Part shown: one piece after another, positions 14,322 through 48,417 of the stretch
Layout of the letters: every line of letters starts with the position of its first letter
How positions within the stretch are numbered: position 1 is the stretch's first letter
Virus record (IMG/VR): IMGVR_UViG_2857089846_000001
Span: 1-64,000 of that record
DNA: 64,000 bases
Reading direction: 5' to 3' (one strand)
DNA from: a virus
Lineage: Duplodnaviria > Caudoviricetes
Notes under the pieces: model-generated
Seen by the model: the letters and a program-made list of their open reading frames with translations, nothing else
Database searches by the model: none
What the model was told of the DNA's origin: nothing
Position numbers and translations under genes: made by a program

Positions 14322-14384
14322 GGAGCGTTGGCGTTGGTCCCGCTCGCTCGTGCGGTCCAACAAGGGAAACTGTACACCATGTCC
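14322..14384 (-). promoter_or_regulatory. Early promoter + ACGAGCGA hairpin + CAACGCTCC leader element
   Basis: GGACATGGTGTACAGT .. GTTGGaCCGC[ACGAGCGA]GCGGgaCCAAC .. CAACGCTCC. Confidence 0.75.
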
Positions 14385-14430
14385 GACCAGGTTGACAGGG
14401 AATCCCCGCTCCTCCGGGGATCGTTGGTAG

Positions 14431-15051
14431 TCAGCGGCGCACACGCGCCCGGGCCCGGGCGATGAACGCGGCCCGTATCGCAGGGTCGATCACCCGGAAG
14501 TGCGCGGAGAACGACACCGGCCCGTCACCGATCTCCGGGTACCGGTGCACGACCAGCGTCCCGCCGGGGAAGTACACGGACGGCTCCATGACCTGGAACA
14601 CGACCCGGGAGCGGCCCATGCGGCGCACCCACGCGTACGTGACCCCGTCGTGGTCGGGCATCGAGTACCGGGCCGGCCCGATGCTCAGCCGGTACCGGGT
14701 GCACGCCGTCGGCGCCGCCGGGTTGTCGTGCTCCCCCTTCCAGTGCCCGCACCGGGCGCAGCACGGAGTGAGCGGCGGCCGCTCGCACGGCACGGCACGG
14801 AACACCGGCCCGAGCTCGGCGGGCGCCATGCACGCGATCTGCCCGAACGTCAGCAGCACCGTGCCCGTGTCGGGTTCGACGGCGGCCGCGCCCCGGGAGT
14901 GGAGCGCGGACGCCAGCAGGGAGCGCAGCAGCGCACCGGACACCGGGGCCGGTGAACTGTCGCGGTCGGCGTTGCTCAGGGCGTAGGCGGTCGCGGTGGC
15001 GTCCAGCGGCCGGGCGATGGCGTGGGCGGACGGGGCGGCGACGGTGGTCAT
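14431..15051 (-). CDS. Hypothetical protein with CxxC-H..H-C Zn motif
   Basis: CARCGHWKGEH..C. Confidence 0.65.
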   Translation of the reverse strand: MTTVAAPSAHAIARPLDATATAYALSNADRDSSPAPVSGALLRSLLASALHSRGAAAVEPDTGTVLLTFGQIACMAPAELGPVFRAVPCERPPLTPCCARCGHWKGEHDNPAAPTACTRYRLSIGPARYSMPDHDGVTYAWVRRMGRSRVVFQVMEPSVYFPGGTLVVHRYPEIGDGPVSFSAHFRVIDPAIRAAFIARARARVRR

Positions 15052-15131
15052 GATCGGTTCCTCTCGGACGGGAATGGGCGGTTGCAGGGCCCGGGGCGCA
15101 GCACGCGGCGCGCCCCGGGCCCACTGGCTGG

Positions 15132-15635
15132 TCAGGGCTCTTCGCGGCGCAGCGTCACGGCGTGCGCTTCCTCGCGGCCCCGGGCGTACAGGCCGTCCAG
15201 CCCTTCGGGTTGGGCCGTGCACCTGTCGGCCGTCCACCGGTACTCGGCGGCGCCGAGCGCGAACACGGCCTGCCCGGCGGTGTGCGGCACGTGGTCACCC
15301 CACTCGTCCCACGACCACATGCCGCCGATGGCGTACCGGCCGTGGCCGTCCGGAGCGATGCTCTTGGTGCCGCCGTCGCCGTCGTAGTCGCGGGTCCACG
15401 TGAACGTGAGCGTCCCGTCGTCGGCGAACGCGGCCGTCATGCCGCAGTCGTCCTTGTGGAGGTCCTTCACGATCTCCTCGGCCGTCGCCCGGGTGAACAG
15501 GTGCGCGCTGTACGGCGTCCACATGTCGCTCAGCGGCAGAGCGACGTACGGGCCGTACGCGCTGCCCTCCACGGTGAAGAGCTGGACGCTCAGGGGCGTG
15601 CCGTCCGGGAGGGTGGGGTTCGGGTTGCTGCTCAT
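15132..15635 (-). CDS. Hypothetical protein
   Basis: RBS gaaagga; YAIGGMWSW motif. Confidence 0.7.
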   Translation of the reverse strand: MSSNPNPTLPDGTPLSVQLFTVEGSAYGPYVALPLSDMWTPYSAHLFTRATAEEIVKDLHKDDCGMTAAFADDGTLTFTWTRDYDGDGGTKSIAPDGHGRYAIGGMWSWDEWGDHVPHTAGQAVFALGAAEYRWTADRCTAQPEGLDGLYARGREEAHAVTLRREEP

Positions 15636-15730
15636 CGCGCGGGGGTCCTTTCCAAGGGTGCGGGGAGGGTTTCAGGGGCGGCGGGTTTGCGGCGCGGCCC
15701 GGCGCACGGTGCGCAGGGCCGGCCGTTTCC

Positions 15731-16264
15731 TCAGTGGCGCGTGGTGTGCTCGCGGTACTCGGCGTCCAGGGCGCGCAGCGCGTCCGCCCACGCGGGCGTG
15801 CCGGGCCCTACGTCCAGGTCGGCGATGCGGGCCCGCCCGTCGGGCGCCTCGCCACCGGAGCCGTCCGGGTTGGTCCACGCGTACGGCGGCTGCGCGGCGA
15901 CCTTCAGGCACAGCCGGAAGACGTCCTGCGGGGCGTCGTTGTGCTCGCACTCCAGGGGCGCGGCGAGCGGCGCGTTCGGGACGGGGCCGCACTGGCGGTT
16001 GCCCATCGTGGCGCAGTCCCGGCCGGACTCGTCCTCTTCGATGACGCCGTCGCGGTTGTCGTCACCGGCGTTGTACGCGGCCACGGTGTCCTCCTGGTCG
16101 TCTTCGGCAACGACCGTGACCGTGGCAGGCGGCCGGGTGGGACCGGACGGAGCGGAGCGCACGGCCCCGACGACGGCAGCGGCGGCGAGCACCAGCAGGG
16201 CGCCCAGAGCGCCGAGGATGACGGCGGCGCGGATCTGCTCGAAGGTCTGGCGGGAGCGGGTCAT
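15731..16264 (-). CDS. Secreted/membrane protein with EF-hand-like loop
   Basis: N-terminal TM; DDNRDGVIEEDE; four Cys. Confidence 0.7.
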   Translation of the reverse strand: MTRSRQTFEQIRAAVILGALGALLVLAAAAVVGAVRSAPSGPTRPPATVTVVAEDDQEDTVAAYNAGDDNRDGVIEEDESGRDCATMGNRQCGPVPNAPLAAPLECEHNDAPQDVFRLCLKVAAQPPYAWTNPDGSGGEAPDGRARIADLDVGPGTPAWADALRALDAEYREHTTRH

Positions 16265-16330
16265 GACGGGTTCTCCGATCGCGGGAAGGGCGGGGCGCGG
16301 CGGGGTGCCGCGCCCCGGGGAGCAGCAGGG

Positions 16331-17014
16331 CTATGCGAGGACGGCGGCGGCCTGGCGGCGGGTCAGGATCTCGGCGGCGCGGTCGCGCGCCGTGGGCAGG
16401 TTCGGCGCGACGGGGGACAGCACCTCGAAGGTGTGGGTGTGGCGGCGGTCGGCGTGCCGCGTCCAGCCGTTGACCGTGCTGAAGGCGTGACCGCGCGGGT
16501 TCCGGCACGGGTGCGACTCCTGCCGACTCGGGTCGGTGGCGCGGGGCGCGCAGATCGTGCAGTCCCACCCCAGCGCGTGAGGGTTGCCCCCGCCGTACGT
16601 GCCGTCCGGGTTGACCACGGCGGCGAAGTAGACGCGCCCGATCTCCACGGGGATGTCGTGGGGAAGCGGCAGGCCCATGGCGCGCGCGGCGTCCAGCTCG
16701 GCGAGCGCCCGGCGGTACTCGGCGTGAGCCGCCTTCTGCCACCCCCACAAGGTCGGGTCCTCCATCACGGCCCGCGCCTCGCGGTACCGGTTCAGCGCCA
16801 CGACGGGCGCCGTGACGTAGGCCAGCAGACCGGCCGGGGTGATGCACCAGCGCTCATCCGGGTCCAACACCAGGTCGCGCGGGGTGATGACGCTTCCGCA
16901 CGGGCAGTGGAAGCGGCCGTCCGGCCCGGCGGCGAAGTGGTTCTTGCAGCAGTTGGCGCAGACGATGACGGTCACGGGGTCGGGCAGTTCGGGGGCGCGG
17001 TCGATCGCGGGCAC
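16331..17014 (-). CDS. Zn-finger-rich hypothetical protein
   Basis: CANCC..CPCG..CTIC..C..H; RBS aggag. Confidence 0.7.
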   Translation of the reverse strand: MPAIDRAPELPDPVTVIVCANCCKNHFAAGPDGRFHCPCGSVITPRDLVLDPDERWCITPAGLLAYVTAPVVALNRYREARAVMEDPTLWGWQKAAHAEYRRALAELDAARAMGLPLPHDIPVEIGRVYFAAVVNPDGTYGGGNPHALGWDCTICAPRATDPSRQESHPCRNPRGHAFSTVNGWTRHADRRHTHTFEVLSPVAPNLPTARDRAAEILTRRQAAAVLA

Positions 17015-17120
17015 GGCTGATCTCCTGTCGAGGCGTAGCGGGGTGAGCGGGGAAGGGTGGCCGGGCGGCCGGTGAGGGGGGAGTGCCGGGCGCCCGGCCA
17101 GCTGGGGGGCGTAGCGGGTG

Positions 17121-17450
17121 CTACGCGGCGGGGGCGTACTCGGCGGTGCGCTTGTAGGTGGAGAGCGCGATCGTCAGGGCCGGGTCACCCGGCTGGTACT
17201 GGAAGACGGTGCGGAGCTTGCCGTTGACGCGGCGGCGGGTGGTCTGAGGGTCACGGCCGTCGTGGGCGGCCCGGTACGCCTTGGCGGCGTGGCGGCCGAA
17301 CGGGGAGGCGTAGCGCTCCACGAACGCTGTCTCGTACCCGAGGGAGCGCAGGAACGGCTTCACGGTGTGCGGCCGGTTCATGCGGCGGCGGTTGCGGAGT
17401 TCGGCGGCGGCGTTGCGGCGGCGGGCGCGGCGTGCGGCGGCAGCAGACAC
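17121..17450 (-). CDS. Small basic hypothetical protein
   Basis: GTG after aaagggg; Arg-rich; first gene of the left arm. Confidence 0.65.
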   Translation of the reverse strand: MSAAAARRARRRNAAAELRNRRRMNRPHTVKPFLRSLGYETAFVERYASPFGRHAAKAYRAAHDGRDPQTTRRRVNGKLRTVFQYQPGDPALTIALSTYKRTAEYAPAA

Positions 17451-17470
17451 AGGGGTTCCCCTTTGGTTCC

Positions 17471-17702
17471 GGAGCGTTCGGCGGCTGACGGGTGCTCGTT
17501 CCGTCGCTGCCGTTCGGTGCGAGCACCACTCTACATGACCAGAATCAAAAAGTGCACACCACGTCCAAGATTGAATGCGCGCCACGCATAAGAGGCGCGA
17601 TAGATCAGGGGATTCCCGTTAAGGCTGTTGCGCACTGCCGGACAGGGTGTACAGTTCTTCTCGTTGGACGGCACGAGCGAGCCGGCCCAACACCAACGCT
17701 CC
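17471..17702. promoter_or_regulatory. Bidirectional early control region
   Basis: AT-richer gap with divergent motif copies (17551-17566 minus, 17640-17655 plus), each followed by an ACGAGC-loop hairpin and AACGCTCC. Confidence 0.75.
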
Positions 17703-17724
17703 CAACCAACCAAAGGGGACACCC

Positions 17725-18468
17725 ATGCCCGTCACCCTCGGCAAGGCCACCGACACCCCCACCGTCACCGGGCCGGCCCACCTGCACATCACCATCGCCC
17801 AGCTCCCCGACGGGCGTATCTCCAGCGTCGAGATCAGCGGCCCCGCCCCCGACAGCGAAGAGCTCTGGTACGACGAGCCGCGCGCCACCGTGTGGACCGG
17901 CCTCACCCCCGACGCAGACGACGACGACCGCGCGATGGCCACCAAGGTGCTCGACCTCGCCATGAGCCCCGAGTACCGCCAGACCAACGGCCACGACTGG
18001 GCCGAAGGCGAGCGCAACGCCTTCGCCTTCCACTTCGACCACACCGAAGAGCGCGCGTTCCTGCGCACCGTGGAAGCGCACCTCATCCGCGCCGGATACC
18101 TGGACGCGCACGTGGGCAGCGTCGCCTGCCACTCCTTCGGCCTCACCCTCGCGGGCAGCGCCGAGCACTACGCCTACAACGGTGACGGCGGCTGGCGCTT
18201 CGCAACCGAAGACTGCACCACCGCCGAAGGCGCATACGAGTACCGCGCCCCGATCGCCCCGGCCGACGCCACCCCCCGCCGCGTCGCCGCCGCGATCCTC
18301 GTGCACCTCGCCGACGCCGGAGAGATCGAGCCCGCCGCACTCGCCCCGCTGCACCGCATCCCCGTCCGCTACGGCCTGTGGCGCATCACCAACTGGGCCC
18401 ACTTCACCCGCCGCATGGGCCAGCGGCTCGACCGCTACCGGCGCCGCATCACCGCCCGCACCCGCTAG
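17725..18468 (+). CDS. Hypothetical protein, first gene of the right arm
   Basis: RBS aaagggg, ATG 17725. Confidence 0.75.
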   Translation: MPVTLGKATDTPTVTGPAHLHITIAQLPDGRISSVEISGPAPDSEELWYDEPRATVWTGLTPDADDDDRAMATKVLDLAMSPEYRQTNGHDWAEGERNAFAFHFDHTEERAFLRTVEAHLIRAGYLDAHVGSVACHSFGLTLAGSAEHYAYNGDGGWRFATEDCTTAEGAYEYRAPIAPADATPRRVAAAILVHLADAGEIEPAALAPLHRIPVRYGLWRITNWAHFTRRMGQRLDRYRRRITARTR

Positions 18469-18691
18469 CCCCGGCGGGGCGCGCCGCACCCCCCGGCGCG
18501 CCCCGGCCTGCCCGATGAGACCCCCGCCCCGCGCGCGCATAGGACGGTCTCACGAGTTCCACGAGCGTCCCTTTCCGCTGGTCACAGCATTGCCCTTCGT
18601 CGTGCCCGCATCGAGCCGCGGCGCCCTGGTCGCGACCCGGTGCGGGGATGCACGAGCGCCCCACCCACCTATGGCCCTTGGAGGTCTGTAC

Positions 18692-18829
18692 ATGTTCGGC
18701 AAGTCTCCTGACGACGAGCGTCCCGTCACCCGCAAGGAGTTCCGCTTCCTCGCGCTCAGCACGGCCGGTGGCTTCATCTGCACTTCCCTCGCGCTGGCCT
18801 GCCTCCTGGCGCTGGACTTCACGGGCTGA
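18692..18829 (+). CDS. 45-aa single-TM peptide
   Basis: RBS ggagg; C-terminal hydrophobic helix. Confidence 0.55.
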   Translation: MFGKSPDDERPVTRKEFRFLALSTAGGFICTSLALACLLALDFTG

Positions 18830-18988
18830 TCCGTCAGTCGGGGCCGGGGCGTGCGCCCGTCGCCCGCCCCGGCCCCGGCCCCCGACCGCGCCGCTTGTCC
18901 GTCGCGGCCGTGTGCAGGGCGCGCCGTAAGCGAGTCCTGCCGGTCATCCTTCGCGCCCGGTCCCCATCCCGAACCATCTGGAGTAGCT

Positions 18989-19582
18989 GTGTCCGTTCTG
19001 CCGTACGTCCCTGCCGTGTTCACACCGGGGGACCGCATCACGCTCGCCCAGGAGACCCACACCCGCGACGAGCGCGGCCACTGGGCGTGCGACACGCCGC
19101 TGTGCCCGTCCTCCTTCACCGACGACGAGATGCGGCGCTTCTTCGCCGACCCGCGCACCCTTGCCCAGGTCGGGCCGCTGATGATCGCCCCGGCTGACCT
19201 TGCGCCCGGTGACCCGCTGCCCGGCCGTGTCGTGGAGAGCGGGGAGGACCCGTTCGAGCTCAGCCGCCCGTACCTCATGGCCGGTACCGCCGGTCCGTCG
19301 CACATGCCGTTCCAGCCGCTCCGCGATGACGTGCCGGGCCCGTGGGGCTTCGGGCAGCGGACGCGCGTCAGCCACAAGCCGCTCGCCCGCATGCGGTGCT
19401 GGCAGATGACGCTGACGCCGACGGGCGTTGTGTGGCTCCGTCTCCCGAGCGGCACCGGCACGTACGCGTACATCCCGGCCGACGAGCCCGGCGCCGAGCA
19501 GATCGAGGCGCTGATGACCGTGGCCGTGCTGCGCGCCGCGTTCCCGGCCGGGGCCGTGGCGATCGAGCCCGACCGGATCTGA
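18989..19582 (+). CDS. Hypothetical protein
   Basis: GTG after ggag. Confidence 0.65.
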   Translation: MSVLPYVPAVFTPGDRITLAQETHTRDERGHWACDTPLCPSSFTDDEMRRFFADPRTLAQVGPLMIAPADLAPGDPLPGRVVESGEDPFELSRPYLMAGTAGPSHMPFQPLRDDVPGPWGFGQRTRVSHKPLARMRCWQMTLTPTGVVWLRLPSGTGTYAYIPADEPGAEQIEALMTVAVLRAAFPAGAVAIEPDRI

Positions 19583-19676
19583 CTCGGGCCCCGGCGGGGG
19601 CGTACCGCCCGTGCGCCCCCGCCGGCCTGCTGCTCCACCTTCTCCCGTCCCTGTGAGCCCTTGGAGGACTCGACCC

Positions 19677-20483
19677 ATGAGCACCGCCGTTACGCCCCAG
19701 ATGCGCCCGTACGTCGCCGCCATTCACGATGCGCTGAGAGCCGTGGAGGAGCGCGCCAGCACGGAGACGCTCGGGAAGCTGAGCGCGGCCCTGCGCAACG
19801 TCCCGGGCAACGAGCTGGGCGACGTCGCGTTCAGGGCCGTCGACCGCGCCGACCGGCTCGCCACGCACGCCATGGACAGCGACGAGTTCGAGGCTGTGCG
19901 CCGCGTGGAGACGGCCGTGTCTCAGCTCATCCACGACGGGCCCACGGGGGCCGTGCAGGACGACCCGGCGTTCGTCGCTCTGCTGGAGCTGGTCTCCACG
20001 TGCATCGCCCACACCGACGAGAGCGCATCCGTGTTCGCCAAGGCGTGGGACCGCGCGTACTGGCACGGCGTGGAGGCCCTGTCGATCGTGATGCGCGTGG
20101 TCCGTCGCGAAGAGGTGGGCACCGGCGAGTTCGACCGGCGGATGACCGCGTTCCTCACCGCCGCGCGGCGCGCCATCGCGTACCGGGCGCTGAGCGAGGC
20201 CCGTGACGCCGTGGCGCTCGCGGCCGCCGACTTCGGCCTGTTCCCCATCGGCGGCCGTCAGGCCGTGGCCGATGACGAGCACGCGTGGACGCGCCGTATC
20301 GGCTCAGCGCTGTACCGGTTCACCGTCACCCGGCCGTACAACGGCGACGGCGCCCCGCTCGGCCTGGTCGTGGCCGTACGCATCGGCCCCAGCAATGCCG
20401 TGGAGCGGCACGCCCTTGCGCTGTCCCCGTACGCGAGCGAGAAGCGCCGCAACGCCGTGGGAGAGGCGCTGTACCGCATCTGA
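19677..20483 (+). CDS. Hypothetical protein
   Basis: RBS ggagga, ATG 19677. Confidence 0.75.
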   Translation: MSTAVTPQMRPYVAAIHDALRAVEERASTETLGKLSAALRNVPGNELGDVAFRAVDRADRLATHAMDSDEFEAVRRVETAVSQLIHDGPTGAVQDDPAFVALLELVSTCIAHTDESASVFAKAWDRAYWHGVEALSIVMRVVRREEVGTGEFDRRMTAFLTAARRAIAYRALSEARDAVALAAADFGLFPIGGRQAVADDEHAWTRRIGSALYRFTVTRPYNGDGAPLGLVVAVRIGPSNAVERHALALSPYASEKRRNAVGEALYRI

Positions 20484-20567
20484 CCGCCCGTCCGGCCGGG
20501 CGCCCGTCGTCCCGGCCGGACGGCCCCCACCATCCGCGTTCCGCCCGCACCTTCCCGGAGGCTCCCC

Positions 20568-21431
20568 GTGTCCGTACAGACGTCGCCCGTTGCCCTCGCC
20601 CGTCAGATCCTGTCCGCCGCATCCCTGCCCGTGATCGACGGGGAGCCGCTGGAGGACTCCCGCGGCTACCAGCTGCGGGAGAACTCCGACGGGACGGTCA
20701 CGGTCTGCCCGGTACTCGACGGCCGGCCCGGCGCCCCCGCCAATCCCGTGTTCCGTGGCGGCTCCATGAGCGAGTGGCGCGCCATGAACCGTGCCGCGCT
20801 GGACGCGGTGACCGCCGAAGGGTGGGAGCGCACCGGCGACACGTGGGACGGCAATGTCTTCCGCGCCCCGGCGGGCCCGCTGGCGCCGATGGTGAAGGAG
20901 ACCATCCACGTCCTGGAGCGCGACGGGCAGCCCGGCTACGCCCGGTTCGACGTGTCCCCGTACATGGGCGCCGTCAGTATTGACGTCGCGGGCGGCTGGA
21001 ACTGCCGGGAGCTGTCCATCAGTGACGTGGCGCTGCCCGCGCTGCACGCTGCCGGGTTCGACGTCTCGACCGTCCATGAGGGCGAAGGGGCCGAGCGGCG
21101 GGAGTGGGGCACGCTTCACCACCTGGTCGTGCGGCCCCCGGTCGAGCGGCGGGAGGAGTGGGCGCTGGCGCACACGGTGCGCCGTCTCCTCCAGAGCAAG
21201 CACACGCACGTCGGGTGGAACGTCCACATGAAGCCCGCGCTGCCCGAGCGCCTGCCGGAGGACGCGGCCCCGGACGCGCACCGTGGCGCGCTGTTCTTCC
21301 GGTTCGACGGTCACGCCGTCCACGGCCCCCGGGACTTCGACCACACGCTTCAGGACGCCGGATACGTCCTCGGCCCGTCCCGGCACGAGTGGTGGCGCAA
21401 CGTCCGCATCCTGCGGCCCGCCGCGCCGTAG
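20568..21431 (+). CDS. Hypothetical protein
   Basis: RBS ggagg, GTG start. Confidence 0.75.
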   Translation: MSVQTSPVALARQILSAASLPVIDGEPLEDSRGYQLRENSDGTVTVCPVLDGRPGAPANPVFRGGSMSEWRAMNRAALDAVTAEGWERTGDTWDGNVFRAPAGPLAPMVKETIHVLERDGQPGYARFDVSPYMGAVSIDVAGGWNCRELSISDVALPALHAAGFDVSTVHEGEGAERREWGTLHHLVVRPPVERREEWALAHTVRRLLQSKHTHVGWNVHMKPALPERLPEDAAPDAHRGALFFRFDGHAVHGPRDFDHTLQDAGYVLGPSRHEWWRNVRILRPAAP

Positions 21432-21569
21432 CCCTGCCCGGCCGGGGCGCGCCCGTCGCCCGCCCCGGCCCCGCCCGCTGTTCCCTCCCCTCGGCCGTGC
21501 CCGTCGCGGCCGTGAGCAGGGCGCACCGTGCCCCCGCCGTACCGACCGAACCCCCTTGGAGATGACCTC

Positions 21570-22196
21570 GTGTCCACCATGACCTCGACCGTCCCGGCCG
21601 TGCAGCCGGCCATGTTCCCCCCGCCGTCCGTCCCGCTACTCTTCGCCGATGGCGACCGCTACGTGTGGACGCACACCGGGGACGTGTGGACCCGCACCAA
21701 CGGGTCGTGGGTGCCGTCCCGGTACGACGGGCTGAACGACGGCCAGGACGACGGCACCGGCTGGTGGTCCGACGCCCAGGTGAGCGCTGCTCTGGGCCGG
21801 GCCATTGCGAACTGGGACGTGCGGCAGCGGTTCGTGCCCGCCGCCCCGGGCCCCGCCCTGCCGGGGCGGACGCTGCTCGCGCTTCCGCCCATGCGCGACT
21901 CCGCGCAGTACGTGACCGAGCACCAGGGGTCGGGGCTGCTCGTGCCGCTGCGGGACCTGGTGGCGCAGCATGACGAGGACGCGGCGTACGACGTTCCCGG
22001 CGTCATCCCCGGCGACAGGATGCGGGACGTCGTGATGGAAGTCGTCAGCCAGCAGCGACGGCCGCGCGCCACGTACGACGAAGCCGCGGGGCGGGTGTAC
22101 GTCCGGTACGACCTGCCCGTGGACCTGTACGGCCGTCCGGCGATCGTGGAGTGCCTGCACGTGTTCGTGCTCACCGCGACCCCGGCGGAGGCGTAG
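21570..22196 (+). CDS. Hypothetical protein
   Basis: RBS ggaga; Trp-rich N-terminus. Confidence 0.7.
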   Translation: MSTMTSTVPAVQPAMFPPPSVPLLFADGDRYVWTHTGDVWTRTNGSWVPSRYDGLNDGQDDGTGWWSDAQVSAALGRAIANWDVRQRFVPAAPGPALPGRTLLALPPMRDSAQYVTEHQGSGLLVPLRDLVAQHDEDAAYDVPGVIPGDRMRDVVMEVVSQQRRPRATYDEAAGRVYVRYDLPVDLYGRPAIVECLHVFVLTATPAEA

Positions 22197-22198
22197 CC

Positions 22199-22492
22199 GT
22201 GGCAAACGCGAAGGAGCGCGGCCGGCTCGGGGACATCCTCATGCGGGAGCTGTGCGAGTACATCACCGCCCTCACCGAGGCAGGGCACGACTGGGAAGCC
22301 GTCTGGGCCTGGGCTGTGTGGCCCCCGGACAGCCGTCTCCGCTGGTTGCATGGCCGGTTCCTGCTCGCGCGGGAGTGCGCAGCCATGATCGGTCACCGCT
22401 TCACCGACGAGGAGATCACCCAGTTCGGTCGGGAGCAACTGGCCTACCTCGCGCAGTACCCGGCCGGGCTGCCGAGCCTGACCGATGAGTGA
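22199..22492 (+). CDS. Hypothetical protein
   Basis: RBS ggagg, GTG start, coupled to neighbours. Confidence 0.6.
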   Translation: MANAKERGRLGDILMRELCEYITALTEAGHDWEAVWAWAVWPPDSRLRWLHGRFLLARECAAMIGHRFTDEEITQFGREQLAYLAQYPAGLPSLTDE

Positions 22493-22832
22493 ACGATCCT
22501 GGGCCCGCGCGCAGTTGGTGCTGCACGCGGACGCCCTCCGGTACGACCTTGCCCGTCGGCTTCGCGGCACCGTCGAAGCCGACGGAACGGTCGAGACTCG
22601 GCGCATCCGGGCCGTCGTGACCGTCATCGCCGTCCGGGCCGGCCTGGTGCGCGTCACCATCCGCCGCCACGACCGTGCCCGCCCGCCCCTGACCGTCGAG
22701 ATGCCCGTAGAGGGCATCGACGTGGGCGCCGTGGCCGCTGCTGCCCGTGCTGTCGCCCGACGCCCGTGGCAGGCCCGGATCGCCGCTCTTGGCCCTCTTC
22801 TTCACGTCCCCTTCCGTAAAGATCAGGAGTGA
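22485..22832 (+). CDS. Hypothetical basic protein
   Basis: Overlaps both neighbours, consistent with translational coupling. Confidence 0.6.
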   Translation: MSERSWARAQLVLHADALRYDLARRLRGTVEADGTVETRRIRAVVTVIAVRAGLVRVTIRRHDRARPPLTVEMPVEGIDVGAVAAAARAVARRPWQARIAALGPLLHVPFRKDQE

Positions 22833-23917
22833 TCAGCATGACCAGCAATCTGCCGCGCACCGTGTTCCGGTCCGTAGAGCTCACCGCCCGTGTGACGACG
22901 CTGCTCGCCCGCACGCTGCCGGAGTGCGGCCCCGGTGGGCAGGACGGTTTCCGCGTCACGTCGCACGACTACCAGGAGCCGCGCCGGATGTTCGTCCGCT
23001 GGTACGACGATGGACGGAAGGACGGTGTCGAGCAGTACCGCGCCCAGATCGCCGACACGCTCGCCCGTGAGGGGTACGCCGTGACGCTGCCGCCCGGCTG
23101 CTGGGACGTGTACGTGGCGGACCGGCCGGTGAACACCTCCGGGCCCCGGTACGCGCCCATACCTTCCGATCTGCCGTTCGGTGACCCGTGGGTGGTCGTA
23201 GACCAGTGGACGCGTGCGGAGGTGACCACCGCGGCGACGGAGGAGGAGGCGAAGGCGGCAGCGATGCGCGCCGAGCGGCGCCACGCCCTCACCGACGCCC
23301 GCATGGTCACCGCGCCGGAGTTGCACGACCACCTGGTGCGCGCGGACGAGCTGCTGGGCGACGGGCTGACGTGGCTGCGGCGCGAGGTGCATGCCGTCAC
23401 CCGGTACGGGGCGATCGTACGGCGCGAGCGGATAGACGCCCTGGTGCAGGTGGCGAACGCGCTGCGGGCCGGTCGGGCGGTCACGGAGGTGGGCCGCATG
23501 GTGGCTTGGGCGGAACCGGTGCCGATGCTGACCCGGGCGCATCCGCCGCTGACCTACGACGTGCAGTGGGTGCCGAAGAGCGCCGCCCCGGCCGTCGGGT
23601 ACTTCCCCAGCCCGGCATGGCAGCGGGGCCCGGCGGAGAACGCGGCGATCACGCTGCTGATCGAAGGCGGGTTGCAGCCGGTCGTGTACGGCGAGTCCGT
23701 CGGTGACGGCGCATGGATGTGCGAGCAGAACGGGTTCATGGTGAGCGCCGCCGACCCGACCAACCTGTCCGTGCCCGGTATCCACGTTGACGCCATCGGC
23801 CAGTCGGCACACGAGCAGCAGGAACGGGTGCCGGAGGTGCTGCGCGGGGCCGGCTGGAGGGTTGAGGGCGACCGTGGTTGGGCTGGCGCGTGGACGGCGT
23901 TCCCGCCGGCCGGGTAG
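22829..23917 (+). CDS. Hypothetical protein
   Basis: RBS aggag; the start may be ATG 22838. Confidence 0.7.
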   Translation: MISMTSNLPRTVFRSVELTARVTTLLARTLPECGPGGQDGFRVTSHDYQEPRRMFVRWYDDGRKDGVEQYRAQIADTLAREGYAVTLPPGCWDVYVADRPVNTSGPRYAPIPSDLPFGDPWVVVDQWTRAEVTTAATEEEAKAAAMRAERRHALTDARMVTAPELHDHLVRADELLGDGLTWLRREVHAVTRYGAIVRRERIDALVQVANALRAGRAVTEVGRMVAWAEPVPMLTRAHPPLTYDVQWVPKSAAPAVGYFPSPAWQRGPAENAAITLLIEGGLQPVVYGESVGDGAWMCEQNGFMVSAADPTNLSVPGIHVDAIGQSAHEQQERVPEVLRGAGWRVEGDRGWAGAWTAFPPAG

Positions 23918-23928
23918 CCGAGCGCGCC

Positions 23929-23945
23929 TGTTCCCCGGGGGAACA
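23929..23945. repeat. 17-bp palindrome TGTTCCCCNGGGGAACA (parS-like), copy 1
   Basis: Also at 33527, 50547 and 60518. Confidence 0.7.
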
Positions 23946-23992
23946 CCTTGGGCGGGGGCCCGGGACGTGCGCGGGCCCCTACCCCCATCGTC

Positions 23993-24055
23993 GGACACGG
24001 TGTACAGTTTTGCTTGTTGGACGGCACGAGCGAGCCGGACCAACGCCAACGCTCC
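23993..24055 (+). promoter_or_regulatory. Early promoter + ACGAGCGA hairpin + CAACGCTCC leader element
   Basis: Near-identical to 17640-17702. Confidence 0.75.
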
Positions 24056-24078
24056 GCATCAACCAGGAAGGCACCGCT

Positions 24079-24873
24079 GTGCCCACACTCACGAGCACCG
24101 ACTTCACCGCCTCGGCCGTGCTGGAAGCCACGCGCACGGTCCTCGGTACCGGCTGGCAGACGTTCCCCGCCCACAACGGCCAGATCCAGGGCACCGTGCG
24201 GTCCGACCACGGCCACCGCATCGAACTCCTCGGCGCCAACTGCGGCTTCGTCTACGCCGCCGCCATGCTGCCGGACGGCACCCGCTTCGAGGCCAACGCC
24301 GCACCCACCGCGCCGACCGCAGCCGCCTACGGCGTCGCCCTGGCCCAGCTCATCGCCCGGACCCTCGCGCCCGCCCACAACGCGCTCAGCGAGACCCGGG
24401 CGAACGTCGGCAAGATCCGGGCCGCCATCGGCCGCGACGTCACGACGCACTGGAGCTTCGGCCGCGCGACGACCAGCTGGGCGCTCCGCGACGGCGGCCG
24501 CGCCCTGCACCACACCGAGCCGCGCCCCGCGCACCTGGGTGACCCGCCCCAAGGGCCCGGCGCCGAGTCGTGGGTGAGGTTCACGGACCTCAACCCCGAC
24601 CAGGTCGAAACGGTGCTCCGCGCGATCGACACCACCAGCGACGACGTGCGGCAGCACGCCCCGGTACACGGCCTGTTCGCCCAGCGGATGAAGGCCGCAG
24701 CGCCCGGACTGCGCCCCCTGGACACCGTGCGATTCGCGCAGTGGGGCCGCCAGACCATCGCCCTGGGCATCGACGGGCTGGTCAAGGTCGAGTTCGTCGC
24801 CGCCTGCCACTCGACCAACGTCACCGTGACCGGCTCGATCGACAGCCAGGTCCGCGCGGCCGCCGCTCTCTGA
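24079..24873 (+). CDS. Hypothetical protein
   Basis: GTG after aggaagg. Confidence 0.75.
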   Translation: MPTLTSTDFTASAVLEATRTVLGTGWQTFPAHNGQIQGTVRSDHGHRIELLGANCGFVYAAAMLPDGTRFEANAAPTAPTAAAYGVALAQLIARTLAPAHNALSETRANVGKIRAAIGRDVTTHWSFGRATTSWALRDGGRALHHTEPRPAHLGDPPQGPGAESWVRFTDLNPDQVETVLRAIDTTSDDVRQHAPVHGLFAQRMKAAAPGLRPLDTVRFAQWGRQTIALGIDGLVKVEFVAACHSTNVTVTGSIDSQVRAAAAL

Positions 24874-24994
24874 CGCTCCCGGCCGGGGAGGGATCGCCAC
24901 CTCCCCGGCACCGCACACCTCTATCCCCCTTCCCTACCGGCGTGGCCGGCGTGCCCGCGCACCGCCGCGCCCTGCCCGAACCCGGAGCATCCCC

Positions 24995-36753: not shown

Positions 36754-36989
36754 GCGCGGGCCCCGTCGGGACGCATCTGCGGGAGCGGGTGCCGGCGGAC
36801 GCGCTTGAACAACACGTGCCCGGAACTCTCTTCGCGCCGCACGGTGATGCTGCCGCGGCGGCGGCCGGCGCGGAGCACCTTCTCCGCCTCGGCGGCCGGC
36901 AGCCCGATGCGCTGGGCGCTCTCGTCGGCGCGCAGCCAGGTCTCGAACGGCAGTCGGTTGATCTGGTCAGCCAGGCGGGCACCTTGCAT
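36750..36989 (-). CDS. Small wHTH-like protein
   Basis: RBS ggagg; SAQRIGLPAAEAEKVLRAGRRRG; preceded by the early motif (37052-37067) and an ACGAGCAA hairpin (37016-37032). Confidence 0.6.
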   Translation of the reverse strand: MQGARLADQINRLPFETWLRADESAQRIGLPAAEAEKVLRAGRRRGSITVRREESSGHVLFKRVRRHPLPQMRPDGARA

Positions 36990-37385
36990 GGTCGCCTCCC
37001 CCCTACTGGTTGGCTCTGGTTGCTCGTCCCAGGGCGATGACCACACACCATAGTGCACGCCACGTCCAGATTCAGCAGTGGCGGCGGCTCGGTGGCATGG
37101 CTGCCCTGAATCCGGAGAGAAGGACTCCGCGACACGCGAACGCTCTGTAACGGTTCCGTAACAGCCGTGGAGTGGTTGAGTGCTCGTCAGGCCCGGAAGG
37201 TGGGTGCAACGTCCCCTATTGCTCCGGTGCGAACAGGGATCAACCATCTCGTCCTCATGCAATGAACGCTTTTGCCGTGCAGCAGAAGTTTTCGATCTGT
37301 CGTGCGAATTGATGGTGGCGCACGTGTTCACGGCTGTCGGAAGATGGCGTTTCAGAGGCCGATCAAGACCGGGGAGCGAGGCGGC

Positions 37386-38087
37386 ATGCCGAAGACGCCC
37401 AGCGGCGAGACCACGTCGGGCCAGGGCGAGTTCGCGCACCCCCTGGAAGCCGCCGCCGCCATGGCGGCCGAGGACCCGACGAACAAGGCCGCCCTTGCCG
37501 AGCTGTTCAACGGCATGTACGAGCCGGTCGTTCGATTCATGCACGCGCGCATCCAAGACCCCGTCACCGCAGAGGACTTGGCGCAAGAGGTCTTCGTCAA
37601 GATCGTCCAGAACATCGGCGGCTACACCGGCGGCGGCGTCTTCGCGTGGGTGTGGCGGATCGCCCGCAACGTCTACAACGACTACTTCCGCCCGATGAAG
37701 AACCGCGGCATCGAACAGCCCACCGGCGACTTCTGGCATCTCGACGCCCCGAGCGCCGAGATGGGCCCGGAGGAGACCGCCGAATGGAGCGACCTCCGCC
37801 TGGCCATCAGGGGCAAGCTGGACAAACTGCCCGAAGCTCAGCACATGGTGCTTGCCCTCCGCATCACCTGCGGGTACTCCACCGCCGAGACTGCGGAGAT
37901 CATGGGCAAGCCAGTGGGTACCATTCGCGTATTGCAGTGCCGAGCACTAGCCAAACTCCGCGGATTGATGCCGGAATGTGACAGCAACCTGGCAACGTAT
38001 CTGCTGTCTGCTTCGAACACGGAGCAGGACGAGGACGCAGCTCCGGTGAAGCTGAGGGAGAAGAACGATGTTGGGTCGCAGGGATAG
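37386..38087 (+). CDS. ECF sigma-70 factor, BldN-like
   Basis: Region 2 AEDLAQEVF..AWVWRIARN; region 4 STAETAEIMGKPVGTIRVLQCRAL. Confidence 0.88.
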   Translation: MPKTPSGETTSGQGEFAHPLEAAAAMAAEDPTNKAALAELFNGMYEPVVRFMHARIQDPVTAEDLAQEVFVKIVQNIGGYTGGGVFAWVWRIARNVYNDYFRPMKNRGIEQPTGDFWHLDAPSAEMGPEETAEWSDLRLAIRGKLDKLPEAQHMVLALRITCGYSTAETAEIMGKPVGTIRVLQCRALAKLRGLMPECDSNLATYLLSASNTEQDEDAAPVKLREKNDVGSQG

Positions 38088-43209: not shown

Positions 43210-43337
43210 GGACGTGGTGTACAGTTCCGAACCGTGGCTGCACGAGCGAGCAGCTGCACCCGGTCTGGTGTAACGAATTCGGCCCTCACTCCGTCCATAG
43301 CGGCGGAAGGCCACCAGCAGCAGACCTTCAACGCTCC
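43210..43337 (+). promoter_or_regulatory. Early promoter + ACGAGCGA hairpin, with distal CAACGCTCC
   Basis: GGACGTGGTGTACAGT; GCTGC[ACGAGCGA]GCAGC; box at 43329-43337. Confidence 0.7.
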
Positions 43338-46441: not shown

Positions 46442-46520
46442 CAGTGGCGAGGCTTTGACGGCATAACGACAAAGTGACACGGTCGAGAGGCTGAGGGTGA
46501 TCTAGGCTGTCCGGGACCGG

Positions 46521-46556
46521 GCGCTCACGAGCAAGAGCGCACCAGGGCAACGCTCC
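46521..46556 (+). promoter_or_regulatory. ACGAGCAA hairpin + CAACGCTCC leader element
   Basis: GCGCTC[ACGAGCAA]GAGCGC then CAACGCTCC abutting the SD aggagg; TAGGCT -10 at 46503. Confidence 0.7.
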
Positions 46557-46570
46557 AGGAGGACAGCAAC

Positions 46571-47794
46571 GTGGCCCGATCCCTCTCGACCGCGCGCCTT
46601 GCCACCATGTCCGAGGCGGAGATTCGATCCGCTGAACGCACCCTGAAGAACGGGACCTGGGCAATCACTGCCGGGGCCTTGCTCTTCAGCGTGCTCACCG
46701 TCACCCCGCTCGTCCGATCGGTCAGCCCGGCTGGCTGGGAATGGACCGCGCCCATCCTGCCGCTCGTCGTGGACGCCGCGGTGATCATCGTCGTGAAGCT
46801 CGACTCGGTGGTCTCCAGGCTCGGTAGCACCGGCGGCGCCTGGCCGGCGCTGCTGCGGTGGATGACCGGCATGATGACGCTCGCTCTCAACGTCGGCCAC
46901 AGCGCCCTGCACGGCGACTGGGTCGGTGTGGCCGTGCACTCCGTCGCGCCGCTCTTGCTGATCGTCACCGCGGAGGCGGGCCTTGCCTACCGGCGCGCGA
47001 TCAGCTCCGCTTTGGACCGCATCGCCGCCGAGGAAGCCGCCGCCGAAGCGCGGAGGCAGACCGAGCGCGAGGCGAAGGAGCAGCGCCTGCGTGAGGAGCG
47101 GGAGCGCGAGCGCGCGGCGCGGGAACAGGCTGCTCGGGAAGAGCGCGAGCACGCGGAGCAGATCGAGCGTGAGCGCCAGGAGCGCGAGGACGCCCGCCTG
47201 CGCGCCGAGCGCGAGCACGCCCTGACCGTCGAGCGGGAGCGGGCGGAGCGCGAAGCGCAGCAGGAGAAGGAGCGCGCTGAGCGAGAAGAGCGCATCGAGC
47301 GCCAGCGTGCCGAGCGGGCAGCGGCCGAGCGCCGCCACCAGGAGGAGCGCGAGCGCAAGGAGCGCATCGAGCGGGAGCGCCAGGACCGCGCGGAGCGCCA
47401 GCGCCGGGAACAGGAGCTCGCGGCGCAGACCTCCGCAGCGGCCGCGGCTCCCGCTCCCGCCCGGCAGCCGGTGAGCGCGAAGGCCCACACGCGGCCGCCC
47501 CGTGTGGTGCAGCCCGTCGTCATGGAGAACGAGTTCGCCGGCATGACGCAAGCCGAGGCGGAGGCGGCGCTGTTCGAGCTGTACCGCGCTGCCCGTGACG
47601 CGAGCACGTACCCGGAGTGGGAGCAGGACCCGCTGGCCCAGCCGGGCGGGGAGTTCTGCGGCAGCCGGCTCGGGGTTCGGCTGGGCCGTTCGGACGCGTC
47701 GGGCCGCGCGAAGGTCAAGCCCAAGTTCGAGCGGTGGTACGCGGAGCACCTTGAGAAGAAGGCCGAAGAGCGGGAGCTCGTCGGCGTGGGCTGA
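46571..47794 (+). CDS. SpdB/DUF2637-like plasmid spread membrane protein
   Basis: 4 TM helices (APILPLVVDAA, TLALNV, HSVAPLLLIVTAE), long E/R coiled coil, C-terminal HTH-like segment. Confidence 0.7.
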   Translation: MARSLSTARLATMSEAEIRSAERTLKNGTWAITAGALLFSVLTVTPLVRSVSPAGWEWTAPILPLVVDAAVIIVVKLDSVVSRLGSTGGAWPALLRWMTGMMTLALNVGHSALHGDWVGVAVHSVAPLLLIVTAEAGLAYRRAISSALDRIAAEEAAAEARRQTEREAKEQRLREERERERAAREQAAREEREHAEQIERERQEREDARLRAEREHALTVERERAEREAQQEKERAEREERIERQRAERAAAERRHQEERERKERIERERQDRAERQRREQELAAQTSAAAAAPAPARQPVSAKAHTRPPRVVQPVVMENEFAGMTQAEAEAALFELYRAARDASTYPEWEQDPLAQPGGEFCGSRLGVRLGRSDASGRAKVKPKFERWYAEHLEKKAEERELVGVG

Positions 47795-47880
47795 CCCCAC
47801 ATGCATTCCGTGACGGCGGGCGCCTCATATCCTCGGGGCGCCCGCCGTCGTCGTTCCGGCTCATCGAATGGACCTTTCTC

Positions 47881-48318
47881 ATGGACCGCTCCCAGCAGGC
47901 AGCCGAGGCGCGGCTGATTGCGGCCGCGCATGCGCGTGAGGCCTCTGACTTCGCCCGGGCGATCGTCGGTTCCACATCCGGTGCGGACACCGCGGCGGAG
48001 CGCATCCGTGCCGGGCGCCGGCTGAGGCTGTTGAGCCTGCAAGTGCTCCAGTGGACTGTTCGGGCGGAGATCCTGCGCGGCACCCCGTGGCCGGAGCTGG
48101 CGGCGGCCCTCGGTCGCGACGAGGAGTCGCTGAGGGCCGAGTACGAGGCGGGCACGTTGCAGTGGGCCGATCGGTTGGCCGACGACGCGGCGGCCGCCGA
48201 GCAGAGCGTCGAGGCCGCGCGCGCCCTGGATGCCTGGTACCGGACGCACGCCGAGGAGCTGATCGACCCGGCCGAAGACGCCCCGGTATCAGGGCTTTTC
48301 ACGCCCCCAAACGGCTGA
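47881..48318 (+). CDS. Hypothetical HTH-like protein
   Basis: GTPWPELAAALGRD. Confidence 0.6.
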   Translation: MDRSQQAAEARLIAAAHAREASDFARAIVGSTSGADTAAERIRAGRRLRLLSLQVLQWTVRAEILRGTPWPELAAALGRDEESLRAEYEAGTLQWADRLADDAAAAEQSVEAARALDAWYRTHAEELIDPAEDAPVSGLFTPPNG

Positions 48319-48379
48319 CCTGGGTGGTAAACTGACCACCATGTCCAAGAGGGGATCTTAGGCCCCTCCGCAGCGCATC

Positions 48380-48417
48380 ATGCCCCGGTACGAGCAAGCC
48401 GTGGGCATCAACGCTCC
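48380..48417 (+). promoter_or_regulatory. ACGAGCAA hairpin + CAACGCTCC leader element
   Basis: ATGCCC-CGGT[ACGAGCAA]GCCG-t-GGGCAT then CAACGCTCC; the following leader nearly matches 24047-24081. Confidence 0.7.

Follow-up and report, generated by a model that had tools for sequence, protein, structure and literature searches.

The DNA analysed here (the window, the whole stretch of 64,000 nucleotides) raises the question of which signal precedes so many of its early genes, and what reads it. The initial annotation had described eight hairpins carrying nearly the same loop on different stems, most of them followed by a short box (AACGCTCC). This observation is confirmed and is stronger than first described, and the interpretation attached to it is partly supported. 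Each site was found where it had been placed and with the stem assigned to it; all eight stand in sense orientation in leaders, upstream of a start codon, and the box precedes the ribosome-binding site in seven of them, at a distance in the 43-kb copy and missing only from the 37-kb copy. The motif looks like a candidate new shared control signal at many early genes of a large Streptomyces phage-plasmid.

Architecture of the leader motif

The motif consists of a hairpin with the loop ACGAGC(G/A)A on complementary but varying stems, followed by an (A/C)ACGCTCC box. The hairpin has 9-10 bp, commonly with an internal loop, and a loop of 8 nt (ACGAGCRA); the box ACGCUCC comes 8-14 nt further on, and the Shine-Dalgarno (SD) sequence 8-15 nt past the box. 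Copies with the box lie on the sense strand closely 5' of the ribosome-binding site of seven window genes; the boxless 37-kb copy is the eighth, and two further copies lie beyond the window (Table 1). Per element the motif is found at 8-10 operons, which are early or non-structural (replication, recombination and many unknown genes). A box-bearing variant with another hairpin loop lies in a conserved non-coding region at 51 kb, and its membership in the motif family is doubtful.

Table 1. Coordinates of the leader motif copies and associated features in the window
Feature	Coordinates	Strand	Parts	Match to covariance model R1	Gene(s) headed
P1-type promoter element, no hairpin or box	4488-4504	-			
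Leader copy	14320-14365	-	hairpin 14333-14361 (GTTGG-a-CCGC / GCGG-ga-CCAAC), loop 14344-14351 ACGAGCGA, box 14322-14329	65.4 bits, E 1.1e-15	13167-14300 and ~10-kb leftward gene array
P1 promoter-like element	14368-14384	-	GGACATGGTGTACAGTT; TACAGT -10-like; hairpin base starts 8 nt later		
Gene of 109-aa protein with N-terminal arginine-rich helix, candidate RNA-binding partner	17121-17450	-			
Variant leader copy	17469-17513	-	stem GACGG/CCGTC 17487-17505, 9-nt loop AACGAGCAC, box 17471-17478	29.7 bits, E 1e-5	Arg-rich protein gene
P1 + leader copy	17640-17704	+	P1 17640-17656, hairpin 17663-17691, loop 17673-17680, box 17695-17702	60.5 bits	17725-18468 and rightward array
P1 + leader copy	23993-24057	+	P1 23993-24009, hairpin 24016-24044, loop 24026-24033, box 24048-24055	63.0 bits	24079-24873
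Hairpin-only variant	37016-37067	-	hairpin 37016-37032 (CTGG/CCAG), loop GACGAGCAA, box absent, P1-like element 37051-37067	missed	36750-36989; opposite ECF-like sigma factor gene 37386-38087 (+)
P1 + leader copy	43210-43337	+	P1 43210-43226, hairpin 43234-43259 (8 bp, two of them G-U), loop 43242-43249, insert 43262-43326, box 43330-43337 (80 nt past loop)		Gam-like/WhiB/replication operon starting at 43378
P2 + leader copy	46499-46558	+	P2 GATCTAGGCT 46499-46508, hairpin 46517-46546 (inner stem GCGCTC/GAGCGC), loop 46527-46534, box 46549-46556	41.1 bits	46571-47794
Leader copy	48378-48419	+	hairpin 48380-48408 (ATGCCC-CGGT / GCCG-t-GGGCAT), loop 48390-48397, box 48410-48417	39.5 bits	AAA_24-like gene 48441-50210
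Box-bearing variant, other hairpin loop	51632-51681	+		22.9 bits, E 8e-4	no ORF behind

The distant box of the 43-kb copy is separated from its hairpin by a 65-nt insert closed by a helix of its own (GGTCTG.../...CAGACC), and in the minimum free energy (MFE) fold of this leader the hairpin is kept, the insert is closed and the box is single-stranded. The orthologous copy in the plasmid retains both helices with changes, and in the predicted structure the closed insert keeps the box adjoining the hairpin.

The motif is not tied to one promoter. The exact sequence GGTGTACAGTT occurs five times in the genome, always within the window, and a P1 element stands alone at 4488-4504, which shows the promoter to be a module separable from the leader motif. 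Among 69 distinct copies, with promoter classes assigned by regular expression, 39 follow P1, 7 follow P2 and 23 follow other contexts; no fewer than five promoter contexts are found ahead of the motif, which is thus a modular leader RNA element. With transcript 5' ends predicted from -10-like hexamers alone, the base of the hairpin in the P1 and P2 classes lies 8-9 nt past the hexamer, i.e. at the very 5' terminus. For the other classes the predicted distance between start and hairpin is 14-30 nt, with a second hairpin preceding it in one of them, which does not fit a pure 5'-end stabiliser.

Distribution in phage-plasmids

The covariance-model search that the initial annotation had proposed confines the motif to a phage-plasmid element and its relatives. 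In the 7.29-Mb genome model R1 gave eight matches with E <= 2.2e-4, all at 7.037-7.145 Mb (next best E 0.0099); these strong copies fall within one element of ~125 kb, colinear with a circular phage-plasmid. The reference plasmid has nine copies by covariance model, and seven related Streptomyces genomes have 5-10 copies each on a single contig of 131-138 kb; R1 matches with E <= 1e-3 in seven related genomes all fall on one contig of 88-138 kb. Among 150 other genomes of the genus only one had an R1 match at E <= 1e-5. The motif-bearing family comprises Streptomyces phage-plasmids of ~125-135 kb. In Rfam, a check also suggested by the initial annotation, the motif matches no family.

An oriented multi-copy motif at non-structural gene starts in an actinobacterial temperate phage setting resembles the start-associated sequences (SAS/ESAS) of Cluster K mycobacteriophages. 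These are reported to occur in 11-19 oriented copies per genome, tied to the points where translation of non-structural genes begins; an upstream inverted repeat accompanies about half of them, and the consensus varies by subcluster; the SAS (GGGATAGGAGCCC) overlaps the ribosome-binding site, the ESAS has conserved 17-bp arms around a variable spacer (PMC3203893, PMC12699233), and the function of both still awaited test as of the 2025 paper (PMC12699233). They share no sequence similarity with the present motif and belong to another host genus and element type; moreover, ESAS arms are conserved and the spacer varies, whereas here the arms vary and covary around a fixed loop.

Chance controls and covariation

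The loop ACGAGCRA occurs 12 times in the window against 6.05 +/- 2.54 expected (2 of 100 shuffles reach 12), seven times in the hairpins and five times in unrelated positions within coding sequence; AACGCTCC occurs nine times against 2.04 +/- 1.50 (0 of 100 shuffles). The whole genome contains 18 hairpins with this loop on a 4-bp stem; the eight at 7.037-7.145 Mb are all followed by the box, the other ten never.

Two alignments bear out the proposal of a covarying RNA-type hairpin with conserved loop and box in operon leaders. In 39 hand-picked copies 89.3% of pair cells are paired, versus 71.2% when shuffled (0 of 500 shuffles as high) and 24.8-56.1% when slid, and both sides have changed in 8 of 9 pairs. 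In the 69 distinct copies, drawn from 10 elements and fitted to the covariance model, which biases them towards structure, the value is 92.9% versus 66.0% shuffled and 20.6-56.7% slid, with 96.7% for the inner helix and double changes in 8 of 8 pairs. A compensatory change is seen directly between the 46-kb copy and its plasmid orthologue (GCGCTC/GAGCGC to GCGTCC/GGGCGC). Cells with G-U outnumber those with A-C by 29 to 12 among 546, favouring the sense RNA strand. Single-sequence folding energies are not significant in ten leaders (z -2.46 to +0.27). We put the probability that these leaders carry a genuine structured RNA signal at about 0.9.

Switch of loop and box in a sister family

A sister lineage from this host genus shares the architecture but carries the loop CACAGCGA and the box CCACACAC (17 copies; 79.3% of cells paired versus 59.8% shuffled). 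Promoter and 3' half of the loop (AGCGA) are kept, and the 5' half of the loop and the entire box are switched. The two families are separated by their models: R2, built for the sister family, has no matches in genomes G000 and G401, and R1 finds nothing below E 0.06 in three sister-family loci. A host site (rRNA, NusB/E, Rho) would be expected to stay constant from one sister family to the other; the switch speaks against a loop-box pseudoknot and a host boxA-like site, and for a partner encoded by the element, which we consider probable. Drift in a cis-acting structure could also produce such a switch, the comparison being one of two families.

A candidate partner protein

The central divergent control region encodes, behind its own variant motif copy, the Arg-rich protein of 109 aa that had been named as a possible partner. 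Its structural model is confident (helix 3-31, pLDDT 91.4) and predicts a folded alpha/beta C-terminal domain; matches were found neither in Pfam nor in PHROG nor among PDB folds. The family is present in 11 of 13 elements examined, each time directly behind a variant motif copy; its N-terminal ~12 residues are not the same in the two motif families, and its C-terminus ends in ...AA. It was not found in G408 or G403 (whole-genome profile; ORF scan of 20 kb), whose elements still have six and five strong motif copies, which means that the partner role belongs to something else or is shared. Conservation, the arginine-rich helix and the variant copy 5' of the gene thus uphold its nomination, but not as sole partner; on sequence evidence it may be regarded as the best candidate.

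Mechanistic readings

We favour, as a proposal from sequence comparison, a bipartite RNA operator that would be read by a partner encoded on the same element, the Arg-rich protein being the best candidate, and that would set the fate of the mRNA after initiation. The outcome would be control of translation and/or mRNA stability, perhaps in a repressor-type or autoregulatory circuit, although the observations fit an activator as well. This outcome, tentative as it is, ranks above antitermination because of the constant closeness to the SD sequence, the predicted 5'-end position of the hairpin behind P1 and P2, and the lack of T-runs after intergenic hairpins; furthermore, a regulator lost by two elements is likelier to be dispensable, as a repressor, than essential. 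In bipartite translational operators (CsrA-type; phage T4 RegA, gene 32 leader) one factor acts on many mRNAs through a short motif that is presented by a hairpin loop and recurs in unpaired RNA near the SD sequence, and the regulator's own mRNA is autoregulated. The present leaders likewise combine a hairpin-loop site with a second single-stranded site near the SD sequence on many mRNAs, but their motif is unrelated and without GGA, their box is set 8-15 nt ahead of the SD sequence instead of covering it, and no homologous protein is encoded here.

The second-ranked reading, which we hold to be rather doubtful, is N/nut-like processive antitermination, with the Arg-rich protein binding the nascent hairpin loop, the box helping to assemble a modified RNA polymerase, and intergenic GC hairpins being read through. 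As in lambda, a hairpin loop as specificity element is combined with a nearby linear box, and a small protein that begins with an Arg-rich helix is encoded first behind its own site in a divergent early region. Lambdoid phages fall into specificity classes whose loop and protein N-terminus vary jointly, as they do between the two related families here, and the ...AA protein end suggests a short-lived regulator. The sites stand at the heads of arrays that are indeed rich in strong GC hairpins (25 of 35 co-directional gaps, uninterrupted stem >= 9 bp), but a need for antitermination does not follow, as T-runs are absent after them (4 terminator-like sites versus 3.8 expected). An essential antiterminator should also persist in all elements. 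The boxA analogy is not supported: the box comes on the 3' side of the hairpin, does not resemble the boxA-like elements of the host's own rrn leader, and is family-specific, which argues against a host NusB/E site. The loop has 8 nt and is no GNRA-like pentaloop, each element has 8-10 sites, every one straight after its own promoter and beside a ribosome-binding site, and the candidate protein has a folded C-terminal domain and lacks homology to known antiterminators; a NusG paralogue was not found in the element.

We regard as unlikely an autonomous cis-acting RNA that uses host machinery only, through a 5' hairpin and/or a pseudoknot, as mRNA stabiliser, ribosome-loading enhancer or gate, or put-like on RNA polymerase. 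The ompA-type 5' hairpin and HK022 put are leader RNAs acting in cis without a dedicated protein, and here too the predicted position of the hairpin is at or close to the transcript 5' end, and at its extreme behind P1 and P2; the motif is also kept in both elements without the Arg-rich protein. However, 5' stabiliser stem-loops require no fixed loop or box, which here are constant within a family and switched between sister families that should share host-read signals, and put is a larger, two-hairpin RNA. The suggested pseudoknot has some points in its favour: loop GAGCG and box CGCUC of the first family are complementary (chance ~2% by our own estimate, ~20 registers x 4^-5), although both sides are invariant and so show no covariation; this pairing is the one adopted by the nested MFE fold in 2 of 10 leaders; and connecting loops of 2 nt, 1 nt and 9-13 nt would suit an H-type pseudoknot provided that the outer helix opened. 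Yet it is weakened on several counts. In about a third of the loops an A occupies the fifth pairing position, and that pair is lost without a matching change in the box; the outer helix and the pseudoknot are incompatible where the helix-box gap is 1-3 nt; and the sister-family loop and box are not complementary, so that such a fold would not be common to both families. In both families the box opens with a repeat of the stem's 3' strand (CCAAC or CCCAC), which would permit alternative pairings.

A DNA-level signal, i.e. a regulator-bound operator or cruciform, or a promoter-proximal pause element for a Q-like factor or the ECF-like sigma factor, would fit the position directly downstream of promoters, the match of box ACGCT to nAnnnT (A and T of a -10-like hexamer) and the element's own sigma factor gene, but is very improbable, as varying arms around a fixed asymmetric centre are the reverse of a dimer operator, G-U is tolerated over A-C, orientation relative to the gene is strictly sense, the closed-helix insert keeps adjacency at the RNA level, and at least five promoter types lie upstream of the motif.

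Structure and distribution of the leader motif

The motif, a hairpin in sense-strand leaders with the loop ACGAGCRA on varying stems, followed by the box ACGCTCC ahead of the Shine-Dalgarno sequence, is strongly backed by covariation and is compact, spanning about 45 nucleotides. All eight hairpins named in the initial annotation were recovered in place with the stems ascribed to them. In a MAFFT alignment of 39 copies 89.3% of the cells are paired, as against 71.2% upon shuffling (none of 500 shuffles scored as high) and 24.8-56.1% when the partners are slid, with both-side changes in 8 of 9 pairs. For 69 distinct copies the corresponding figures are 92.9% versus 66.0% shuffled, with double changes in 8 of 8 pairs and an inner helix paired in 96.7%, values which lean towards structure because this alignment was fitted to the model. 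The inner stems seen are CGGC, CCGC, GCGC, ACGG, CGGU, GCUC, GUCC, GGGG and CCGA, each with its complement, and compensatory changes also distinguish the window from its plasmid orthologues (e.g. GCGCTC/GAGCGC versus GCGTCC/GGGCGC). The loop is 8 nt long in the 69 copies (7-9 nt in variants), and in three copies the helix is more extensive than earlier described (GTTGG-a-CGGC ... GCCG-ga-CCAAC). The non-Watson-Crick cells comprise 29 G-U as against 12 A-C, a bias in favour of the sense RNA strand; a signal acting at the level of DNA, ranked last among the explanations considered here, is highly improbable. Folding of single sequences recovers the hairpin in 8 of 10 leaders, with leader energies that are ordinary for their G+C content (z -2.46 to +0.27). 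In the copy at 43 kb the 65 nt between hairpin and box form a closed helix of their own, with the box staying beside the hairpin, an arrangement kept in the plasmid orthologue.

The window contains 12 occurrences of the loop word versus 6.05 expected and 9 of the box word versus 2.04 expected. Across the host genome (G000; a single 7.29-Mb contig of 71% G+C, in which the window is C1:7023616-7087615), 18 hairpins present this loop on a 4-bp stem; the eight that lie within 7.037-7.145 Mb each have the box and a start codon behind them, and the other ten are scattered elsewhere and lack the box. The first search for relatives, with a pattern combining promoter word, loop core and box, recovered 20 loci from 8 further Streptomyces genomes, almost always on a contig or plasmid 131-138 kb long, together with two viral genomes in IMG/VR (134 and 137 kb). 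A match in a Solibacteraceae MAG was rejected as chance (best E-value 0.0017 with the covariance model R1), and the looser pattern ACGAGC..AACGCTCC was uninformative in 400 genomes of the same genus because of a background of about 2 chance matches per genome. The model R1, built from 39 copies, obtained 8 matches in G000 at E <= 2.2e-4, all in the element (next best E 0.0099). In seven related genomes (7.7-10.7 Mb) all matches at E <= 1e-3 fall on one element contig each, with 5 to 9 copies per element; an eighth genome, in fragments, yielded 10 copies and the reference plasmid 9. When 150 further species of the genus were sampled, each by one genome, matches at E <= 1e-5 occurred in 1 genome. 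At least 13 elements carry the motif, some of them deposited as plasmids and others as viral genomes. It is absent from Rfam: searched against Rfam 15 at gathering score, the whole window has 0 matches, and the segment 17400-17760, with its two motif copies, has 0 even at E <= 10. Literature searches on the element family and the motif words, supplements being outside their scope, found nothing; the available part of PMC13659240 contains nothing on the family, and motif strings used as queries returned only unrelated primers. We conclude that this is a real, previously uncatalogued and family-specific leader RNA motif.

The gene content of the window shows that the motif resides in a phage-plasmid-like element; in addition to the genes in the table, it codes for AAA_24-like, DnaC/IstB-like loader, SSB, WhiB, Gam-like and replication-initiator-like proteins. 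The element is situated about 140 kb from the right end of the G000 contig; between the start of the window and about 7.148 Mb its sequence is colinear (66-86% identity) with NZ_CP107821.1, relative to which it is permuted. The latter is a circular 132,597-bp plasmid of Streptomyces sp. NBC_00536, annotated with major capsid protein, portal, ParA/ParB, ERF, FtsK/SpoIIIE and 7-deazaguanine genes. Relatives of the element are mostly separate contigs of 127-138 kb, and homologues of one element protein occur on contigs of 8.1 and 9.6 Mb; hence, the family seems to occur in a free as well as an integrated form. A 92-nt module was matched in the plasmid collection only by NZ_CP107821.1, and the phage collection had no DNA match to this module or to a 20-kb region. 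The G000 element remains colinear over a helicase-family gene of this plasmid (see table); the plasmid annotation also lists a pair of NUDIX hydrolases, a member of the 2'-5' RNA ligase family and a gene cluster for 7-deazaguanine synthesis.

Coordinates of the element, motif-associated sites and genes (positions in the window unless a record is named)
Feature	Position	Strand	Description
Element holding the whole window	G000, 7,023,607 to about 7,148,500		About 125 kb, inside the chromosome contig
Boxed motif copies outside the window	G000, 7,142,649 and 7,144,797		Two of the eight boxed copies
P1 without motif	4488-4504
Arg-rich protein gene	17121-17450	-	109 aa
Central divergent control region	17451-17724		A pair of P1-like elements and a pair of leader motifs, arranged back to back
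ECF-like sigma factor gene	37386-38087
P2 example	46499-46508
Non-coding region	51560-51770	+	73-87% identity in six other elements
Tail genes	59-64 kb		Tape-measure-like and Dit-like
Helicase-family gene	NZ_CP107821.1, 45587-61330		One DEAD/DEAH-box helicase family gene of 15.7 kb (about 5,250 aa)
Gene replacing the Arg-rich gene	L127 (G408), 708-1289	-	Unrelated 194-aa protein with CxxC pairs, preceded by the variant leader

Promoter contexts and genes headed by the motif

Two promoter-like elements, P1 and P2, precede motif copies. With all promoter calls resting on TAnnnT-type hexamers only, 39 of the 69 distinct copies are preceded by P1, GGACnnGGTGTACAGTT, and 7 by GTGATCTAGGCTGTC (both as regular expressions); the remaining 23 stand in other contexts with TAnnnT-like hexamers, including one class with an intervening UUCG-type hairpin. 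The P1 class includes a few Arg-rich gene leaders, in which the P1-like element is further upstream. The exact word GGTGTACAGTT is found five times in the genome, every time inside the window, and no canonical sigma-70 consensus promoters were detected in 8001-28000. P1 also occurs by itself, and the motif is a module of the leader that is separable from any one promoter. On the Arg-rich gene side of the central divergent region we observed a second -10-like hexamer (TAGAGT), followed by a small GGTGC..GCACC hairpin and then by the variant motif.

The genes behind the motif are of early type, namely a Gam-like/WhiB/replication operon, a DUF2637-like gene and a gene in the AAA_24/ERF position. 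It also stands ahead of long arrays of genes without an assigned function and of the region that precedes FtsK/SpoIIIE, and no virion genes are headed by it. The motif would define the early regulon of a common, undescribed family of Streptomyces phage-plasmids of about 130 kb.

A sister motif family and the Arg-rich protein

A search for relatives of the Arg-rich protein uncovered four further elements, one of which has the R1 motif; in the other three, from Streptomyces sp. NPDC001536, NPDC058751 and NPDC093707 (L168, L172 and L173), R1 had no match below E 0.06 within 20 kb. These three carry a sister motif (family 2, that of the window being family 1), with a recognisably related promoter (CGTTCGTACTGTAyGGTTTTCC), a 9-10-bp helix starting 8 nt past TACGGT, an 8-nt loop, and the box CCACACAC followed by the Shine-Dalgarno sequence. 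Across 17 copies 79.3% of the cells are paired versus 59.8% shuffled, with both-side changes in 9 of 10 pairs. The corresponding model, R2, detects 7, 7 and 5 copies, confined in each genome to a single contig of 125-133 kb, and has no matches in G000 or in a second genome, G401. The loops of the two families have their 3' half (AGCGA) in common and differ in the 5' half, and the boxes differ entirely. One word is common to the 5' half of the loop and the box (ACG in family 1, CAC in family 2); as a general rule this was rejected, as it fails for variants within a family. The two non-cross-hitting versions make a swap experiment possible in the search for a partner.

The Arg-rich protein has 43 homologues, all unannotated and mostly on Streptomyces contigs of 122-138 kb, a set that implies some 40 or more elements, and its gene is always the first behind a variant motif copy. 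It has 9-11 arginines in residues ~5-26, within a modelled helix at residues 3-31 (block pLDDT 82-94; model pLDDT 91.4) that stands on a small alpha/beta domain. Over its first dozen residues the protein is of a different type in each motif family, namely MSAAAxRRxRRR... with ACGAGCGA and MPKARTHRPRR... with the family-2 loop, CACAGCGA. A third N-terminal type, MSAA-ARRARRR, is joined to a body like that of family 2. Searches for known N or antiterminator homology gave no Pfam or PHROG match, Foldseek against the PDB had a best E-value of 1.1, and the protein atlas returned unnamed clusters only. The initial annotation had named this protein among the possible partners of the hairpin; the N-terminal Arg-rich helix agrees with this, but a whole-genome profile search and ORF scan did not find the protein in two family-1 genomes, G408 and G403, which keep 6 and 5 strong motif copies. 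In G408 the leader is conserved and the gene that normally follows it has been replaced by another (see table). No other obvious candidate for an element-encoded partner emerged besides the Arg-rich protein. The C-terminus of the family is almost invariably ...AA (residues PAA, TAA or VAA), resembling a C-terminal degradation tag, and in the alignment of homologues (A3) the protein of the window is shortened by an internal deletion of ~15 residues compared with its relatives of 123-129 aa.

Functional implications

The most likely explanation, to which we assign a probability of roughly 0.4, is that the motif is a bipartite operator read by an element-encoded factor, which would act on early mRNAs by controlling their translation and/or stability. 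A box read by the host (NusB/E, rRNA or Rho) should be constant in sister elements, and it is not, as it switches between the two families within one host genus. Further, the analogy to boxA drawn in the initial annotation was rejected upon comparison with five host rrn leaders, which have GTTCCTTGAGAAC and GGTTCCTTTGAAWAAC in common as against ACGCTCC in the motif. This combination of a box that differs between sister elements and is unlike the host rrn leaders points to a partner that would be encoded by the element. A scan for anti-box and anti-loop words, as might mark a trans-acting antisense RNA, had a background too noisy to read.

N-like antitermination by the Arg-rich protein, which ranks second, is doubtful. 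The arginine-rich N-terminal helix is of the kind expected for such a protein, and the intergenic GC hairpins from which an antitermination setting had been proposed are present: among the co-directional gaps of 40-230 nt in 3000-53000, 25 of 35 have, immediately past the stop codon, a GC-rich stem of 9-19 bp without interruption. However, no T-runs follow these hairpins and terminator-like sites are at expectation (4 versus 3.8), the protein lacks known antiterminator homology, and two elements that keep the motif lack the protein, so that the case for antitermination is weak. An RfaH/LoaP-type system was likewise rejected, as the element encodes no NusG paralogue and the sole PF02357 match in the genome is at 4.03 Mb; nor does the 8-nt loop correspond to the GNRA-like pentaloop boxB of lambda nut. 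Candidate roles for the intergenic stems themselves include a 3'-end stabiliser, a processing barrier or a non-canonical terminator.

Third in rank, and somewhat less probable still, is an autonomous RNA that uses the host machinery. It draws on the loop-box pseudoknot suggested in the initial annotation, for which GAGCG and CGCUC in family 1 are complementary (about 2% by chance, by our own estimate), their pairing being chosen in two MFE folds, but the loop and box of family 2 are not complementary. Neither strand of GAGC/GCUC varies in family 1, so covariation cannot test the pairing; the fifth pair forms only in loops with G and is lost without compensation in those with A. Hence, the pseudoknot is not a feature common to both families, and the switch of the box within one host genus also argues against an autonomous RNA. 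As a 5'-terminal stabiliser, the helix would be suitably placed in the P1 and P2 classes, where it starts 8-9 nt past the -10-like hexamer and is predicted to lie at the very 5' end of the mRNA, but in the other classes this distance is 14-30 nt.

By analogy, the hairpin and the Arg-rich protein might constitute an independently evolved arginine-rich-peptide/RNA-hairpin pair like lambdoid N-boxB, with at least two orthogonal classes and with about ten early operons under its coordination, a proposal that we regard as unlikely. If true, Actinobacteria would have their first system of this kind, and Streptomyces, an industrially important genus, an orthogonal RNA-protein toolkit; were the Arg-rich protein the partner, it would represent a new peptide-RNA recognition module and an orthogonal expression switch. 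To our knowledge, almost nothing has been established on how Streptomyces phages and phage-plasmids regulate their genes, and no leader RNA signal of this type has been catalogued. Going by the available parts of the two papers, the closest described features of the same kind are the SAS/ESAS repeats of Cluster K mycobacteriophages, the function of which is still untested (PMC3203893, PMC12699233). SAS has a 13-bp consensus at the RBS and ESAS has conserved 17-bp inverted-repeat arms, as described in the accessible portion of PMC3203893; the SAS consensus given there is absent from the leaders read. In SAS/ESAS, as far as these excerpts describe them, the arms are conserved and the spacer is variable, whereas the motif of the window shows the reverse, with varying arms and a fixed loop.

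A further conserved non-coding region at 51.5-51.8 kb has near-invariant inverted arms of ~22 bp (AGGTGGCCGCCcTGC..CCGATCTC / GAGATCGG..GCAcGGCGGCCACCT), for which covariation gives no answer because of their invariance. No family-2 counterpart was found at two loci checked. For its nature, a structured RNA is one candidate and a DNA site, for instance an origin or a recombination site, is another. Its G-U pairs favour the + strand, and the arms enclose a variable core of ~165 nt without an ORF, which contains an ACGCTCC box.
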